64,000 nt of DNA from Escherichia phage vB_EcoM_Skers. Both the position numbers and the translations under genes were made by a program. A model generated the notes under the pieces. That model was not told where the DNA came from and did no database searches. It saw only the letters and a list, made by a program, of their open reading frames with translations. Shown piece after piece: positions 7,413-21,591 of this stretch. The stretch's first letter is position 1. Every line of letters begins with the position of its first letter. The stretch lies in sequence record MW748999.1. One strand, written 5' to 3'.

Positions 7413-7899
7413 ATTTTGCTAAATCATTGCAATATTTTAGTGCCTTAGTTTGAAATTCTGCGCTGTTAAGTTCTTCATAACGGTCATAATCACCGTTTAA
7501 TGCTGCCTTTCTTGCTTCTTGCTCTATCTGCATGTCAGACATGATAATACAGCGATCCCGTGCTTTCATCTTCTCAAGTTGTATAGACTCTTCTTTCTGT
7601 TTGCGCAATTCTTCTTGACGCTTCTTTTCTTCTCGTGCTTTCTCTTCCCGCGCTTCTTTGATTGCATCCTTGAACATCTGCGTTTGTGGTGCTAAACCAA
7701 CTTTAACGCGATCCACGTCTCGACGTTCCATTTTAGAAATAAAGCATGATTCGATCTGACCATCACTTGCATATGCTGCTTTACATTCACGAAGCAAGAA
7801 AACCGGATCTGATTTAGCCTTCATCATAGCTTCCATGTTAGCACAACCATTAAGCATAGCCACTAAAGCCGCAAGACCAATTAGTTTAATCATTTTCAT
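7411..7899 (-). CDS. Putative lipoprotein with Lys/Glu-rich coiled-coil
   Basis: N-terminal signal peptide with lipobox-like LNGC; KEAREEKAREEKKRQEELRK low-complexity helix. Confidence 0.55.
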   Translation of the reverse strand: MKMIKLIGLAALVAMLNGCANMEAMMKAKSDPVFLLRECKAAYASDGQIESCFISKMERRDVDRVKVGLAPQTQMFKDAIKEAREEKAREEKKRQEELRKQKEESIQLEKMKARDRCIIMSDMQIEQEARKAALNGDYDRYEELNSAEFQTKALKYCNDLAK

Positions 7900-8720
7900 T
7901 TAGTCACCTCACCGAAAATTGTAAATTGTCTACGATTCTCATCGCCGAAAGATTCTACTACGTCGTTTACCTTGACGCAAGTCCCGCGCGGTAAAATTAC
8001 TTCACATTCGCAAGGATTCCATGCAATCGACCCAACAACAAAACCTTTATGATCTTTTACGTCAATTACCCATGATACATTACAAGAATGTTGCATCTTT
8101 CCGGTCATCGATTCATATCGATTCTCACAATAAAGGCTAGTGCTATTTGAAAGCCAGCCTCCAAAGATGATTGGTGTCATGCTGGTTGATACAAAGTTTT
8201 TAAAGGTAAATTCCTTATCTTCAATAATACGCTCTATTGTTTGAATGTCAAGATGTTGACCACGATAAAGAGTACCGTTTAACTTTTCGGTTTTATCCAT
8301 GACGCAATCCATCAAATCAACAATTTCGGATATCTCGTCGGTCATGTCTTCTTCCCCTAAGAGAGCACCATTTACCCATTCGTATTGTTCAGACACATAA
8401 TCACAGATTGCATTATATTCTGCTGGGGTTATGTTGTTATGTTTGTAATGTTTGAATACATTATCTCCAAAATCTTCGGAGTGTACTTCATACATCACAT
8501 TAATGATTTTCTTGATAAATCCATAATCTTGTGTCTCACGCTCAAGGAAGCGGATAACCTTCACATAATCATCAAAGTTAATCTGATCACTGATCATCTC
8601 AGTGATCATGTAACCATTAATCCCCTCAATGTCATATGTTTCGATGTAATTATCCATACGTTCCATCATTGATTCGCGTGATTCTTCTGAAAGACGAAAA
8701 TCCTGTAATTTCTTGAACAT
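7896..8720 (-). CDS. Alt/Mod-family ADP-ribosyltransferase (small paralog)
   Basis: R-S-ExE catalytic triad: LYRGQ, FVSTSMT, ECEVILPRG; homologous to C-terminal domain of adjacent Alt. Confidence 0.8.
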   Translation of the reverse strand: MFKKLQDFRLSEESRESMMERMDNYIETYDIEGINGYMITEMISDQINFDDYVKVIRFLERETQDYGFIKKIINVMYEVHSEDFGDNVFKHYKHNNITPAEYNAICDYVSEQYEWVNGALLGEEDMTDEISEIVDLMDCVMDKTEKLNGTLYRGQHLDIQTIERIIEDKEFTFKNFVSTSMTPIIFGGWLSNSTSLYCENRYESMTGKMQHSCNVSWVIDVKDHKGFVVGSIAWNPCECEVILPRGTCVKVNDVVESFGDENRRQFTIFGEVTK

Positions 8721-8797: not shown

Positions 8798-10849
8798 TTA
8801 CATTTTAAATTTATCTGGCATTGCGTCTACAGATACCAGATCAGCGATAAGCTGACGTAGAGTTGCCTTATCTGCTTTCTTACGTTCGGTTTTAGCTTCG
8901 GTAATAAAGCTGGAGAAAGACAGGTCAGAAGCAGGTTTAATAACACCTTCACGGATGAATGCATCACCGTCAGCGATCATCTCGCCAGATTCTTGTAATG
9001 CTGCCAGTTCATTTTTGTTCATAATATGTGCCTCAATGTAATAAGTTTCTTGTGAATCCGTCGATGCCGTAGCACGAGTTACCGTATCAAAGGATAGCAC
9101 AACACCGCGAGGAAGTAAAATCTCGCATTCTTTGTAAGCAAATGCTTTGTTACCTACTGGCAATACAGGGATGTTTTCCGCGCCAGCAATGGAGAAAGCA
9201 ACATTAGCGCCACCTTCACCGCGAGAGCCAGCCATAGAATCAACACCAGCAACGGCACTAGCCACGTTTGCATTCCAGCCGCCAAAAATGTTAGGTGCAA
9301 GGGAAGTGCTCACATAGTTTTTAAAGTAAAACGCTTTTTGCTTACGTGCAGTTTCCCACATTTGCGAACGGAAGTCCATACCACGATACAGAATAGTACC
9401 CGGATCAAGTTTAACGCCATAGTTAGAGAAGGCATTATCCAGTGCATCGCACATCTTGACCAATTCTTCTGGATCTGCGATGCCGTCAAACTCTTCCAGC
9501 TTACGGTCGGTTAGGAAGTTGTTCATATTGATGTATGCTGCATCGGCATATTCGCTCAACACAAAACCTTCCGCGCCCGGCAGATCAAGATCAATATCTG
9601 CCATCATTTCACCCATGTTGCTAGCAATTGCTTCAAACATACCGGAAGCAACATTACGTAGGGCATCGGTTTTAATCTGTGTGATGTGACTACGCAACAT
9701 TTCAGCTTTTACATCTGCTGGCATAGACTGGTCTACTCGATCCATTGCTATGGCAGTGATCTTGTTTTCGAATACGTCCTCGCTCATGATTTCTTTTAAG
9801 CGTTTGATTGATGCTGCGATAACTTCCGCAGACAACGGATCATATTGATCCTGAACTTTTACCAGTTCGCTTACTGCGTATTTTGCATCGGCTTCGCTTT
9901 CAAAAATAGTACGCATGAAACCATAGCGAGTGATAATATCACTTGTCCAGTCATTCAGAGAACGAGCGGTTGAACGTTCTAAGGCTTGACGATCAATCAG
10001 AGTATTAAACTGTTTCTTAGGTTCTGCTTCGGTGATATCTTCTTCCGGTTTAAGATTAATTTTTTCTGGATGATTCACATAGTCGCTGTTATAGGTCGCT
10101 TGAGTTTTCAGCATTTCTTCTTTAGTCAAACGAGATTTAGCCGCTACGCGTTGTTCTGCTTCCGCGTTTCGTTCTTCTTCTGACACAAGACTAGCCGCAT
10201 ATGCCTCATCTTTAGTCAGAGATTCACCAGTAGCCTTAGATACCCAGCGATCACCTAAATCACTTTCTACTTTAGTGAACAAGGATTCATCAAGTTTAAT
10301 CCCTTTAATCTTATCAATCGCCATCCCGCGACGCTTGACAACAACTAAAGCGATCTTTTTGCTGGTCATTACTTCCTGCTGGAATACTTCAAACTTCGGT
10401 GTACGACGCACCAAACGCTCTATAACGCGCTTAACCAGTTCGGTCTTACCCTTCATACGGGATACGTTAAAACGGAACATAACAGCGTCTAATTGCGCTT
10501 TACGGGCTGTTTCCATAACCACATCAAAAGCACTTGCCATAACTGCAATCGGGTTATCGCCTAGACCATTTTTAAGCTGTACAATACGACCGCTTTTGTT
10601 CATTTCGCACAGTACAACATGTGCGGTCTTGTCACCCATACGAATGATTTTAGGTGTTTTGTTGGTGAAGTTACAAAGACGGACAATCACATCTTTATCG
10701 CGTGTCTGTACTGCAAAAAGCTGTTTAGGATTCTGCTTAGGCTTTAAGCACTGTACCGGAGCAATACTGCCAAAGTTTTCTTCCTCTTCCGTCAACAGCC
10801 ATTTCTCGAAAGATTCAATCATTAGATCGTCGATTTCTAAGTTAAACAT
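8798..10849 (-). CDS. alt: Alt ADP-ribosyltransferase (packaged RNA polymerase modifier)
   Basis: 683 aa (T4 Alt is 682 aa); C-terminal LYRGMD, YVSTSLAPNIFGG, ECEILLPRG triad. Confidence 0.9.
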   Translation of the reverse strand: MFNLEIDDLMIESFEKWLLTEEEENFGSIAPVQCLKPKQNPKQLFAVQTRDKDVIVRLCNFTNKTPKIIRMGDKTAHVVLCEMNKSGRIVQLKNGLGDNPIAVMASAFDVVMETARKAQLDAVMFRFNVSRMKGKTELVKRVIERLVRRTPKFEVFQQEVMTSKKIALVVVKRRGMAIDKIKGIKLDESLFTKVESDLGDRWVSKATGESLTKDEAYAASLVSEEERNAEAEQRVAAKSRLTKEEMLKTQATYNSDYVNHPEKINLKPEEDITEAEPKKQFNTLIDRQALERSTARSLNDWTSDIITRYGFMRTIFESEADAKYAVSELVKVQDQYDPLSAEVIAASIKRLKEIMSEDVFENKITAIAMDRVDQSMPADVKAEMLRSHITQIKTDALRNVASGMFEAIASNMGEMMADIDLDLPGAEGFVLSEYADAAYINMNNFLTDRKLEEFDGIADPEELVKMCDALDNAFSNYGVKLDPGTILYRGMDFRSQMWETARKQKAFYFKNYVSTSLAPNIFGGWNANVASAVAGVDSMAGSRGEGGANVAFSIAGAENIPVLPVGNKAFAYKECEILLPRGVVLSFDTVTRATASTDSQETYYIEAHIMNKNELAALQESGEMIADGDAFIREGVIKPASDLSFSSFITEAKTERKKADKATLRQLIADLVSVDAMPDKFKM

Positions 10850-11447: not shown

Positions 11448-11966
11448 TTAGTTATTTTTTAATTGCTCATCTTGCAATAGGGCAATCACATGCTGGCGAT
11501 GCTCTTCCGATTGAGGCACACCGAAAAAGTTTGTTTTGTAGAAATACTCTAATCGGTCTTCTCGTGTGCTCTCTTCCATCATGATCGCTGGTAGTCCGAG
11601 ATTTCGGAAACGTCGCTTTTCTGCTGGAGTAAAATCACTGTAATACAACATAGAATCATCATTACCAGCAATGCTAAACTCATCCTTCATAAAGGAGAAT
11701 ATTGCGTTTAAACGCTGTTTACCGTCCACGATTTCGATCTCATAGCGAGAGCCATCATCAATCTTAGCCATTGCGATAGCACCAACCGGAAAATCATTAA
11801 TAAGGTTTTCGATAAACATACGTTTGTTTTCTGTGTCCCATACTAAAGGACGCTGATAATCTGGGTTCATGTTGATATAGCCATCTTCTAACCATGCATC
11901 ATAAACAGAGATGACAAAGTTTTTAGTATTGGTATAGTAACGGCGTTTAGGCGTTAAACGGTTCAT
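11448..11966 (-). CDS. DUF262 (ParB-like / GmrS N-domain-like) protein
   Basis: DGKQRL (DGQQR-type) motif and PDYQRPLVW; start trimmed to ATG 11966 with SD AGGAG; last gene of five-gene operon. Confidence 0.6.
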   Translation of the reverse strand: MNRLTPKRRYYTNTKNFVISVYDAWLEDGYINMNPDYQRPLVWDTENKRMFIENLINDFPVGAIAMAKIDDGSRYEIEIVDGKQRLNAIFSFMKDEFSIAGNDDSMLYYSDFTPAEKRRFRNLGLPAIMMEESTREDRLEYFYKTNFFGVPQSEEHRQHVIALLQDEQLKNN

Positions 11967-11967
11967 G

Positions 11968-12300
11968 TTATAGTCTCCTGAATGGATCATCACGTAAATC
12001 AATATCTTTTAAGAACTCCTCCCATGAATGGCGGATATTGTTCTTAATTCTCCAGATAAGAGCAGGGATTGAACGCTCTCCCATCTGGAAGTATGGATCA
12101 TATGATCCATATGCCCAATATGCTACTACAATTCCACAATCAGCGCAATAATATTCTATTTCACTTGCTGGCGACCAAAGTCCATCAATATGATCGGTGA
12201 TCTTGCTTTCGATGTTATGGCTATGACAATCAGGGCAACGGATGCAATGACCTTGTTTATCGTAATTTGACGTTAGAGAATACTTAAACAATCTCATCAT
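11968..12300 (-). CDS. Zinc-ribbon protein (110 aa)
   Basis: CIRCPDCHSH ... YYCADCG (CxxC ... CxxC); ATGA overlap with upstream gene. Confidence 0.6.
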   Translation of the reverse strand: MMRLFKYSLTSNYDKQGHCIRCPDCHSHNIESKITDHIDGLWSPASEIEYYCADCGIVVAYWAYGSYDPYFQMGERSIPALIWRIKNNIRHSWEEFLKDIDLRDDPFRRL

Positions 12301-13013
12301 AGATCCTTATTTGCTTCAAATACTGCCTTTGCGAATCCTCGCGGGGTAAGTGACCTTATAGTCTTTGTTTTCGTTCCTTTCCCGCCTAGCTTAGAATGCT
12401 GTTTACTGTACCCTTTATTAATCTGCAAAGGTTTCTTTTCTGGCATTATAAAGCCTTGTCCGGTCCATAAGCAAGTCTTTTTCGGGTACATATCACGGGC
12501 GGCAATATACTCAGGAAACGTAGGATGCTTATCATCTTCCGGCAAATAACCGCCATATTCCCACGGATGGAACATATAATCAGGCTTACGCCACATGCTA
12601 GAGATAACGCTTACAGGATTCTCTATCATGTAGGGAACTCCTAGCCATTCACCCAAATACGCGGTTATTTTGGCTGCCCTTACATCATGAACTTGAATCA
12701 ATGGTCCTTGTTCTCGTTTCTTTCGTTCAAAGTGCGCAGCGCCACTAACAGCTAAATTGGTGCACGGTGGGAATGCAAAGATAATATCCGGTTTCCCCCA
12801 TTCAAGGTCCATTGCTCTTTCCAGCCAGTTCAAATCAATCCAGGTGTTTACATAGGTAATGTTTGGATGTTCAAATCGGGTATTATACTTTTTGTATGTG
12901 CCGTGGTCGGCGTCATCCGCATTAAAGCAGACTACCTTATGACCTGCTTTAGCCCATTCTAGCCCCATTATCCCCGATCCGTCAAAGTTGCAGAATATTA
13001 ATTTTTGTTTCAT
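12297..13013 (-). CDS. Minimal C5-cytosine methyltransferase-fold protein (no target recognition domain)
   Basis: Motif I FDGSGIMG (FxGxG), motif IV FPPCTNLAVSG (PC catalytic Cys), motif VI ENP (ENV-like), C-terminal RSLTPRGFAKAV (R.LTPRE-like). Confidence 0.6.
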   Translation of the reverse strand: MKQKLIFCNFDGSGIMGLEWAKAGHKVVCFNADDADHGTYKKYNTRFEHPNITYVNTWIDLNWLERAMDLEWGKPDIIFAFPPCTNLAVSGAAHFERKKREQGPLIQVHDVRAAKITAYLGEWLGVPYMIENPVSVISSMWRKPDYMFHPWEYGGYLPEDDKHPTFPEYIAARDMYPKKTCLWTGQGFIMPEKKPLQINKGYSKQHSKLGGKGTKTKTIRSLTPRGFAKAVFEANKDL

Positions 13014-18239: not shown

Positions 18240-18716
18240 TTATTTTTCTTGATGCTCGCGCTCGTACTTTTCGAAATAAAATTCTACTGGCTGGTCGTGG
18301 ATTGACAGTAAGCCAAAGCGTTTAGCCGCTCGCAATCCCATATTGCGCTGAATGTACTTCTGGAAGTTCTCGCGTATACACTTACGCCAGTATTCTAAGC
18401 CCATACAGCTTTTATAAAGATTGCATTGCACACATGCCGGATTCATGTTATCAAGTATATCATGCTCCGGTTTATGCATTCCTACAACCTTATACTTCCA
18501 CGATCCATCATCATTACGGGCAATTCGTCCATTTTCATCATAGACTACCTTTGAGCGTCGCAATACTGGTTTGATGTGGTCTGCGTGCCAGCGATCCCCT
18601 AGTTCCTCGCCACAATAGGCACAACGTCCACCATATTTCATTTTCAGGATCTGGCGTTGCTCTTTCTTTGACAATTTTTTAGGTTTAGGGGCTTTCGCCC
18701 CTTCATTATCACACAT
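18240..18716 (-). CDS. HNH endonuclease
   Basis: CAYCGEEL ... WHADHIKPV ... NMNPACVQCNLYK (HNH / zinc-finger nuclease motif). Confidence 0.75.
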   Translation of the reverse strand: MCDNEGAKAPKPKKLSKKEQRQILKMKYGGRCAYCGEELGDRWHADHIKPVLRRSKVVYDENGRIARNDDGSWKYKVVGMHKPEHDILDNMNPACVQCNLYKSCMGLEYWRKCIRENFQKYIQRNMGLRAAKRFGLLSIHDQPVEFYFEKYEREHQEK

Positions 18717-20208
18717 CGAATACCTCTTTTACTGTATTTGCAGTGGTCTTGTCGTAGCGAATACGTTTGATGATCGGGAGAAATAAAGAGAACTCTGGTT
18801 CATCTTCTTTACGTGATTTGCTGCGGATATACCCGTTGCATGTCATCTCAATGACTTTTCCAATCAGGTTATGACGGTCAGCCCATAACATTTCTCGGTC
18901 AAGTTCATTTCTACGATCGAACGGAATCACACGTTCAATACCATCATCTTTTTCGGTTGTAGTGTCGGTCAATCCCGATCCGGTGTTGGTCATCATTCGT
19001 CCGCACGCACTACGGACAGTAAAACCGCCTACCTTATTAGGATCTTTACTATGCGGATATACATCAACAATTTCCGCGTCGAAGTCAATCACTTCTTTAA
19101 ATTTAACCTGATCTTTACTACGGCGATCTTCAAATACACCATGTAAATTTTTAAGGATAATACCTTCTAAGCCCATGTTTACATAGCGATGATATACTTC
19201 GCGAGCTTCATCTATATTGTTAACTACAGTGTTTTCGATTATCTGAACACGAGGATCGTTAAGTTCTTCAACAATCTGTTTTAGTTCTTCGAATCGATCT
19301 TTATATTGCTTCGTTGCTTTCTCGTTTCCGTAATACACATCACGGTCGATAACATCCCAGACAGTGTAAACAATACATTGGGCTTCTTCTTTTGGAATAG
19401 TTCCTTTCAGTGATTTGTTGAGGATACCATTTCCGGTCTGACGATCTGCAACAACGGATTCTTTTACTGCTTCCGCTACTGGCGTTAATGGCATTTCCTC
19501 TTCTTCAAATATCCATGACAGAGTACCATCATAAACGCTTTCAACGAAGTTCTGCGCTGGTGTTTGCGAAAGGGTAGGCATATATACCAATTCCCCATCT
19601 AGAACAATTCCACGGCCTCGTAGACGCTCTAAAACAGCAAACAAATCATCCAGCCCCTGATAGGTATTACCTGAACGGGTATAGATTGCTAATGTTTCCC
19701 CGTCAATATCAGCCATCCCACGAGCGCCATCGCTTTTAAGTTGTGCATACGCCGGATACTTGATATTAGCAATAGTCTTATCAGAACATGACGATGCAAG
19801 GTGGCACGGTTGCTGAGGGATCAGTTTCTTCCATACCTTGTTTGCAGTGGTAGCGGAACAACCGCATTCCAGATCACGATTCAGGACCATCATTGCAACT
19901 TTAGCATCATCTTCTGACAAGCAAGTCAGAGTATCGGTAACTAGCTGTAATGCTGCATTACCAGTTACTTGACGCGTGGCAAGTTTATTTTTAAAGACCT
20001 GTAATGCACCGGATAAAGACAATACAGACGAATAACGCGATGGTTTATCGTATTTCTTTACGCCAAACGTAACCTGTTTGCAATATGCCAGATAAAAACA
20101 TTCTTTCAGTGTTTCATTGCTTGCAGATTCTTTCAGGATCTTTTCTTTCAGCGATGTTTTGTCTGTTGCTGCAAGCTGGTTAATGATATTAAGAATTGAC
20201 ATTTTCAC
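18709..20208 (-). CDS. 30: ATP-dependent DNA ligase
   Basis: 499 aa; adenylation motif KSDGARG (KxDG); N-terminus resembles recalled T4 gp30. Confidence 0.9.
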   Translation of the reverse strand: MKMSILNIINQLAATDKTSLKEKILKESASNETLKECFYLAYCKQVTFGVKKYDKPSRYSSVLSLSGALQVFKNKLATRQVTGNAALQLVTDTLTCLSEDDAKVAMMVLNRDLECGCSATTANKVWKKLIPQQPCHLASSCSDKTIANIKYPAYAQLKSDGARGMADIDGETLAIYTRSGNTYQGLDDLFAVLERLRGRGIVLDGELVYMPTLSQTPAQNFVESVYDGTLSWIFEEEEMPLTPVAEAVKESVVADRQTGNGILNKSLKGTIPKEEAQCIVYTVWDVIDRDVYYGNEKATKQYKDRFEELKQIVEELNDPRVQIIENTVVNNIDEAREVYHRYVNMGLEGIILKNLHGVFEDRRSKDQVKFKEVIDFDAEIVDVYPHSKDPNKVGGFTVRSACGRMMTNTGSGLTDTTTEKDDGIERVIPFDRRNELDREMLWADRHNLIGKVIEMTCNGYIRSKSRKEDEPEFSLFLPIIKRIRYDKTTANTVKEVFDV

Positions 20209-20668
20209 CTCGTTTTGTTAAACGTTCACGAATATCATTGAGGATACTACAAAATTCCGATTCAGTCAATATAGTCTTTAACGGATCAGTTCCACCTATG
20301 CTATGTCGCAATTTCTTATTTCCGGTCGCGAGTAATGCTTTACAAAATTCTGGGTTATTCCGTGCCATCGTAACAAATGCCAGATGTACCAGTCTGTAAT
20401 AATGCTCACTCATTCGATGAATCGGGCGACCCTGAAAATATAACATGTGATTCTCAATCTTTTCAGTTCTTCCGGTTCTTTTTGCTTTGCCACCGTGCAT
20501 CAAAAAGATTTCTCTTTGTCTCTGAGGGTTCTTAAATCTTAGCCCCTGTAAAAATCCTTCTGTGCTGTTAATATCGCAACCAAATAGACGGAATGGTCTT
20601 TTATTGAAATTACTCAATTCACCCGATGGATAAGGTCCACCCGCATAGATATCAATTTCAGAAGTCAT
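20189..20668 (-). CDS. NADAR (YbiA-like, DUF1768) domain protein
   Basis: LSNF, STEGFLQGLRF, ALLATGNKKL and GG.DP segments match the NADAR pattern (FSNF ... SEHYFQ..KF ... LLAT). Confidence 0.55.
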   Translation of the reverse strand: MTSEIDIYAGGPYPSGELSNFNKRPFRLFGCDINSTEGFLQGLRFKNPQRQREIFLMHGGKAKRTGRTEKIENHMLYFQGRPIHRMSEHYYRLVHLAFVTMARNNPEFCKALLATGNKKLRHSIGGTDPLKTILTESEFCSILNDIRERLTKRGENVNS

Positions 20669-20822
20669 TGAAACTAATCTCGCTAATCAGAGAGAACGGA
20701 TCATAATCGTCATTAGGAATATCGATAGTAATCGAATGAGGATTTACCCATACACCAAACTGGTCTTCTTCGGTGAATACTTCGGTATGGATTTCGTGGA
20801 TGTTTACATTCATAGTTTTCAT
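20655..20822 (-). CDS. Hypothetical small protein (55 aa), not in ORF track
   Basis: ATG 20820-20822 with SD AAGGAA; stop overlaps NADAR start. Confidence 0.4.
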
Positions 20823-20861: not shown

Positions 20862-20894
20862 TAGCCAAAATATAGGCGGGATTATTTCCCGCCG
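20862..20894 (-). terminator. Intrinsic terminator downstream of gene 31
   Basis: GGCGGGaaataatCCCGCC followed by T-rich tract on minus strand. Confidence 0.55.
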
Positions 20895-21270: not shown

Positions 21271-21591
21271 TTATTTATAAATTTCGACGATCTGCGCTGG
21301 AGTCAGCCCGTCTACATTAATCAGACTATCAAGCCCAAAACTACGGAAACCTTCAACTGCAATTTCATATACTGGCAAAGATGTTTCTGATTCTTTACGC
21401 GGTTTTTCAACATTAGGAACTAACCACTTTTCGTATGTTTCAAACGGCATCAGTGCCGGATCTCGCGTGGCGAACATCTCACGGACAGTACCATCTTTCT
21501 TAGTAAACTGTAAAGAGTGAGTACCTACAGCAAGCATTTTCTTTAGTGCTTCACGAAGTGCGATATTATCAATTTGTTCAGTCATTATCAA
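21271..21591 (-). CDS. Hypothetical protein (106 aa)
   Basis: ORF overlap-coupled to cd. Confidence 0.55.
   Translation of the reverse strand: MIMTEQIDNIALREALKKMLAVGTHSLQFTKKDGTVREMFATRDPALMPFETYEKWLVPNVEKPRKESETSLPVYEIAVEGFRSFGLDSLINVDGLTPAQIVEIYK
21272..21279 (-). promoter_or_regulatory. T4-type late promoter (TATAAATA) upstream of gene 31
   Basis: Minus-strand TATAAATA about 44 nt upstream of gene 31 ATG, overlapping the stop of the upstream ORF. Confidence 0.5.

Follow-up and report, generated by a model that had tools for sequence, protein, structure and literature searches.

The window contains an orthologue of gene 30.3 (adfN) of phage T4, which in our reading encodes a minimal NADAR-superfamily enzyme of one domain that would do the same job against DarTG1 as its T4 counterpart, and we put the probability of this reading at roughly 80%. 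By the window we mean the whole stretch of DNA that was analysed, namely 64,000 nucleotides of Escherichia phage vB_EcoM_Skers (record MW748999.1). Family membership, the predicted fold, conservation of the active site, an intact C-terminal helix and the gene context were observed on this stretch. The gene as such is already known, as it is the RB49-type orthologue of a characterised counter-defence gene, and gp30.3 has been annotated in the RB49-like lineage since 2003. It was picked here from raw sequence while its function was established only in 2024-2025, so the result is mainly a confirmation. The novelty that remains is a natural lysine-to-arginine variant in a phage outside the Tevenvirinae, which is no discovery by itself.

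Family assignment of the gene 30.3 product

The initial annotation, made from the letters alone, had described an open reading frame for a NADAR-like protein with three signature segments. The frame is present and starts with ATG, and the segments are all found in its product, LSNF at residues 18-21, STEGFLQGLRF at 35-45 and ALLATGNKKL at 111-120.

20189..20668, minus strand: gene 30.3 / adfN orthologue, a 159-aa single-domain phage NADAR, predicted guanine-ADP-ribose DNA glycohydrolase

The key residues of the protein are E37, R44, K63/G66/R67 and H122, followed by a C-terminal helix. A search against the NADAR/DUF1768 profile, proposed earlier as a check, had a divided outcome: the Pfam NADAR family PF08719 scored 15.5 bits (E=0.021) and thus missed its gathering score of 35.1, whereas PF08010 (Phage_30_3, 'Bacteriophage protein GP30.3') was clearly matched with E=1.2e-38 and 132.5 bits versus a cut-off of 36. 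The latter match covers the whole domain, with window residues 13-148 corresponding to profile positions 2-138 of 138. PHROG 652 was also matched (E=2.5e-45), as was, weakly, an NCBIfam model for anti-phage NADARs (E=0.023), while the PADLOC models gave no match to the protein. Judged by sequence, the protein is therefore a superfamily relative and not a member of the PF08719 family model, with His122 standing where the YbiA subfamily has Glu. The label NADAR-like holds at the superfamily level, since the fold matches solved NADARs and 'phage NADARs' is the literature term for the gp30.3 proteins (PMC11125620, Toxins 2024; PMC11543638).

The window protein is 100% identical to RB49 gp30.3 and shares 38% identity end to end with T4 gp30.3 (E=2e-30). 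Homologues were found by tblastn in 1509 phage records, the hosts including Escherichia, Klebsiella, Aeromonas, Acinetobacter, Vibrio and others, and a HMMER search of 1.84 billion representative proteins gave a gp30.3 family of 973 clusters (50% identity) at E<=1e-3. Given the family match and these homologue counts, a chance ORF can be dismissed. Over the 2.6 kb surrounding the gene, the DNA is 98-99% identical in nucleotides to JSE, RB49 and 57 other records, which places the phage in Krischvirus (RB49/JSE-like, T4-type phages of E. coli). Gene 30.3 is intact in 59/59 Krischvirus records, with copies at least 95% identical.

The family also has larger architectures, read from the related proteins P0019, P0117, P0021, P0058 and P0061. 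Some members of about 290 aa are tandem double domains, which accounts for the 296 positions of the PHROG 652 profile. Fusions to a calcineurin-like metallophosphatase or to BspA-type leucine-rich repeats also occur, and a recurrent architecture of about 470 aa has the 30.3 domain at the C-terminus, preceded by about 320 residues without a Pfam match.

Predicted fold and structural comparison

An AlphaFold2 model of the window protein was built from 12 homologues (pLDDT 94.3, pTM 0.89). Its significant structural neighbours are three solved NADAR proteins only, the best being YbiA, so that the comparison with YbiA-type folds suggested in the initial annotation yields the NADAR (YbiA) fold and no unrelated one. 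In the model, H122 comes directly after the strand 119-121, and the C-terminal helix lies at 136-157, where the segment LTESEFCSILNDIRERL aligns with the T4 C-terminus without a frameshift.

Profile comparison reached less far than the model. When compared with the solved NADARs, a family profile of 12 sequences found YbiA with E=0.12 and one of 74 sequences found it with E=7.4e-4, while 8bau and 8bat were reached by neither; P0059, a family member nearer to NADAR, gave noise only when used as the query. Because the profiles fail to reach 8bau and 8bat, the equivalence of K63/G66/R67 with K75/G78/R79 of PnNADAR is one of motif spacing alone.

Published function of the family and the proposed mechanism

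A bioinformatic study by de Souza and Aravind (2012) defined the NADAR superfamily together with its phage branch, as cited in PMC11543638, and the reversal of guanine ADP-ribosylation by NADARs was reported by Schuller et al. in 2023 (PMC11543638). In DarT1-associated NADARs the last strand has Asp in place of the catalytic Glu, and in phage NADARs it has His (PMC11543638; the criterion is also found in PMC11125620). The T4 gp30.3 protein removes guanine-ADPr in vitro and leaves thymine-ADPr, and it cannot rescue uninfected cells from DarT1; in the same work, NADARs of equal in-vitro activity had a strongly different protection range in vivo (PMC11125620). The methods of that paper give the T4 gp30.3 construct as 'residues 1-208', versus 152 aa for the RefSeq T4 gene 30.3.

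The resistance of T2 and T4 to DarTG1 has been mapped to gene 30.3, which was renamed adfN for anti-DarT factor NADAR and whose product strips ADP-ribose from DNA (Johannesman et al., Nat Commun 2025; PMC11825919). In T-even infection the T4 adfN gene is necessary and sufficient against DarTG1, and its deletion in T4 leads to DarTG1 sensitivity (PMC11825919). The E36A and K43A forms of AdfN are weaker, E36A impairing the counter-defence, and the RB69 allele, which is 15 residues shorter and without the last helix, is defective (PMC11825919). According to the same study, the three phage AdfN proteins assayed are all specific for guanine-modified DNA, the anti-DarT factors of T-even phages are layered and allele-specific, and full activity of T4 AdfN is seen only during Tevenvirinae infection, for which some T-even factor is apparently needed (PMC11825919). 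Cytidine-ADPr is not removed by the T4 enzyme (PMC12945103, 2026).

It had been suggested in the initial annotation that the phage protein could act against ADP-ribosylating defence toxins of the host. This has been demonstrated for AdfN, its T4 orthologue, against DarTG1 (PMC11825919), and as that role is already published, the suggestion was right but is not new. A literature search for Krischvirus together with DarT or DarTG returned nothing.

Both the chemistry and the action against DarTG1 are transferred to the window protein by analogy with the T4 orthologue. On infection of an E. coli cell with a DarTG1-type toxin-antitoxin system, DarT1 would ADP-ribosylate guanines (N2) of the phage DNA and replication would be blocked. 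The phage enzyme would then bind the ADP-ribose and cut the N-glycosidic bond between ribose and guanine, by which the DNA would be restored unmodified and replication could go on. In this mechanism Arg44 and Arg67 would act on the adenine and the pyrophosphate, while the distal ribose would be flanked by Glu37 and His122. For the RB49-type protein, whose catalytic Lys is replaced by Arg, we infer the same function as for T4 AdfN. Against a simple transfer of the role stand this Arg, the sub-threshold match to Pfam NADAR, and the finding that T4 AdfN works fully only in Tevenvirinae, outside which Krischvirus lies. The T4 genes 30.1 and 30.2 were considered as the T-even helper; neither has a homologue in the window, and T4 30.2 is without a Pfam family.

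Active-site residues and the Arg44 variant

The conservation of residues was counted over 161 gp30.3-family sequences, with the following results for the window protein.

E37: equals T4 E36, the catalytic Glu (E43 of PnNADAR); kept in 158/161
H122: the phage-specific His; kept in 159/161
R85: kept in 159/161
N20: kept in 157/161

The residue at position 44 is different. Arg44 occupies the position of the catalytic Lys, which is K43 in T4, K95 in E. coli C7 DarG1 and K50 in PnNADAR, whereas the other active-site residues are as in T4. Of the 161 family sequences, 147 have Lys here, 10 have Arg and 4 have some other residue. Arg44 is common to all 4 Krischvirus sequences aligned (the window, RB49, ECD7 and SSG23) and also occurs in a metagenomic relative of 69% identity, with Lys in a relative of 61% identity and in T4. 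The Lys at the K50 position of PnNADAR contacts the adenine and the pyrophosphate, and the engineered K95R form of E. coli C7 DarG1 keeps hydrolysis in vitro while cells are no longer rescued from DarT1 (PMC11543638). Taken with this K95R phenotype, the natural Arg44 means that the window enzyme may differ from T4 AdfN in efficiency or specificity. By analogy, Arg44 might lower the efficiency or alter the specificity; equally, it may be compensated in the Krischvirus background.

Position 63 is Lys in the window protein and in 133/161 family sequences, Arg in 16/161, and Gln in T4. From the spacing of the motif (AKxxGR, compared with K75..G78-R79 of PnNADAR), Lys63 might be the counterpart of a Lys in DarG1 that is required in vivo and dispensable for catalysis. 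T4 AdfN, the sole member studied experimentally, is thus atypical at this position (Gln; L002:7308-7766). As a speculation, again by motif spacing only, this Gln might be linked to the failed protection outside T-even infection.

Joining the two positions, the Krischvirus AdfN could be a naturally re-tuned enzyme, with Arg at the catalytic Lys position and the family-typical Lys63 that was lost in T4; we give this a small chance. If it were so, its target range or its dependence on a T-even helper could differ from those of T4 AdfN, and a comparison of the T4 and Krischvirus proteins could expose determinants of NADAR specificity in vivo. Arg44 together with the non-Tevenvirinae background could also help explain the context-limited protection by phage NADARs that share the same chemistry.

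A further reading of the Arg44 variant is that the enzyme is an active NADAR whose target has shifted away from E. coli C7 DarTG1, to another DarT1 allele, to guanine-ADPr on RNA, or to a pierisin/ScARP-like or YarT-like guanine toxin. The natural replacement of Lys by Arg at a residue contacting phosphate and adenine speaks for such a shift, as do the K95R form of DarG1, in which activity in vitro is uncoupled from rescue in vivo, and the identity of only 38% to T4 AdfN. So do the different protection in vivo by NADARs of the same activity (PMC11125620) and the layered, allele-specific nature of the anti-DarT factors in T-even phages. However, the remaining active-site residues match T4, all 3 of the phage AdfN proteins assayed are specific for guanine-modified DNA, and the T4 enzyme leaves cytidine-ADPr (PMC12945103), so we hold a shifted target to be improbable and keep to the anti-DarTG1 role.

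ADP-ribosyltransferases of the phage and a metabolic alternative

The initial annotation had also pointed to two ADP-ribosyltransferases in the window. Both are borne out by matches to PF03496 and, in tblastn, to T4 Alt.

7896..8720: Alt-like transferase, PF03496 E=4e-16; 'similar to C-terminal part of T4 Alt' in RB49
8798..10849: alt, PF03496 E=3e-9; 'alt' in RB49

The presence of two PF03496 transferases within the window is what favours the idea, raised at the same time, that the 30.3 enzyme reverses or tunes the phage's own ADP-ribosylation, that is, the marks set by Alt and the Alt-like protein on host proteins. This idea found no support. The activities of T4 gp30.3 in PMC11125620, PMC11825919 and PMC12945103 are all on guanine-linked ADP-ribose of nucleic acid, and in none of the three is removal of protein-linked ADP-ribose by a NADAR reported, whereas the annotation of T4 Alt describes a transferase whose target, host RNA polymerase, is a protein. 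The alt genes also lie about 9 kb away from 30.3 with more than 20 ORFs between, and the reported outcome of deleting adfN in T4 is DarTG1 sensitivity. The occurrence of alt and 30.3 in one genome need mean no more than that both are genes of T4-like genomes; a functional tie between 30.3 and Alt was rejected as being without support, and own-mark reversal is in our estimate very unlikely. A YbiA-like metabolic N-glycosidase acting on riboflavin-pathway intermediates, or a decayed inactive remnant, is just as hard to believe: YbiA is the best structural match, but the last-strand Glu that defines YbiA is His here, and in Krischvirus 59/59 copies are intact, share at least 95% identity and keep the active-site residues.

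Two more frames of the window were noted.

11448..12002, minus strand: 184-aa ORF with TTG start and a GmrSD-type N-terminal domain, PF03235 / DUF262 E=6e-20; RB49p187, hypothetical
12297..13013, minus strand: 238-aa counterpart of RB49p189, 'DNA methyltransferase' in RB49; no Pfam family at E<=0.01

The former represents a modified-DNA restriction enzyme by one half only, which is odd for a phage.

The overlapping block of gp31.-1, 30.3 and ligase

The gene order on the minus strand is pseT, cd.2, cd, 31.1, 31, a terminator-like hairpin, gp31.-1, 30.3, 30 and an HNH endonuclease gene, and the features next to 30.3 are as follows.

21279..21272, minus strand: late-promoter motif TATAAATA, just upstream of gene 31
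20875..20893, minus strand: terminator-like hairpin GGCGGGAAATAATCCCGCC with strong GC, followed by a T-run, between gene 31 and gp31.-1
20658..20822, minus strand: gp31.-1, 54-aa ORF with an AAGGA Shine-Dalgarno before its own ATG
18709..20202, minus strand: gene 30, ATP-dependent DNA ligase, PF01068 E=2.7e-22, 41% identity to T4 ligase
18240..18716, minus strand: HNH endonuclease, PF01844, overlapping the ligase stop by 8 nt

Gene 30.3 had been described as overlapping the ligase start and as preceded by a coupled micro-ORF, and both features are real. The overlap with the ligase is 14 nt, from the ligase ATG (20202..20200) to the 30.3 stop TAA (20191..20189), as is also annotated in RB49. 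The 3' end of 30.3 also contains the ligase Shine-Dalgarno GAGGTGA (20211..20205); the ORF list has the ligase start at a GTG at 20208, which is a mechanical call only. The micro-ORF, named gp31.-1 in RB49, has 54 codons for amino acids and its stop overlaps the 30.3 ATG by 11 nt (ATGACTTCTGA), an arrangement which suggests translational coupling. It is kept at 90-100% in 59/59 Krischvirus records and was seen in no other records, and it matches no Pfam family. That it might be a diverged T4 30.4 was rejected, as there is no similarity between them and its distribution is Krischvirus-only.

From these overlaps, 30.3 is probably translated together with gp31.-1 and ligase. Of the proposed co-expression with ligase, then, the overlaps stand and co-translation is plausible, but the arrangement is special to Krischvirus and not a trait of the family, because in T4 the genes 30.1 and 30.2 intervene between 30.3 and ligase. 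Nothing was seen in the gene context that ties 30.3 functionally to ligation. The hairpin at 20875..20893 forms the upstream edge of the 31.-1/30.3/30 block, and as gene 31 is bracketed by the late-promoter motif and this downstream hairpin, the block would stand behind a terminator. A search for its promoter in the 52-nt gap after the terminator gave neither a sigma-70 consensus nor a late-promoter motif. At the other end of the block, the HNH frame appears to be a mobile-type nuclease inserted right after gene 30, where T4 has alt.1.

Among the T4 genes between ligase and 31, matches in the window were obtained for 30.3 and 31.1 only, and none for 30.1, 30.2, 30.4-30.9 or rIII. That 30.3 is kept intact while the other small genes of this T4 interval are unmatched fits sustained selection. 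An orphan antitoxin of AdfN type that is intact in 59/59 RB49-like phages likewise fits a strong and lasting pressure from DarT-type DNA ADP-ribosylation.

Comparison with known systems

The nearest known system is T4 gp30.3/AdfN. Both proteins belong to PF08010 and are minimal NADAR cores of about 155 aa with the Glu E36/E37, the last-strand His and the C-terminal helix, and both genes lie in the interval from 30 to 31 in a T4-like genome. They differ in that T4 has Lys43 and Gln where the window protein has Arg44 and Lys63. In T4, 30.1 and 30.2 separate 30.3 from ligase and the upstream neighbour is 30.4, whereas the window 30.3 overlaps ligase. The host phage of T4 AdfN is in Tevenvirinae, and the window phage is outside.

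A second related system is the NADAR antitoxin DarG1, which belongs to DarTG1 (E. coli C7; G. lovleyi structure 8bat). It has Asp in the last strand where the window protein has His122, and its N-terminal extensions make up a basic channel (PMC12945103), whereas the window protein of 159 aa is the core domain only. The DarG1 gene adjoins that of the toxin darT1, while the window 30.3 is an orphan with ligase and gp31.-1 as neighbours.

In E. coli YbiA (2b3w), the Phytophthora NADAR (8bau) and PF08719, the last-strand residue is Glu, in contrast to the His of the window protein. Enzymes of the YbiA type remove cytidine-ADPr and act on riboflavin intermediates, whereas cytidine-ADPr is left in place by the phage NADAR of T4 (PMC12945103).
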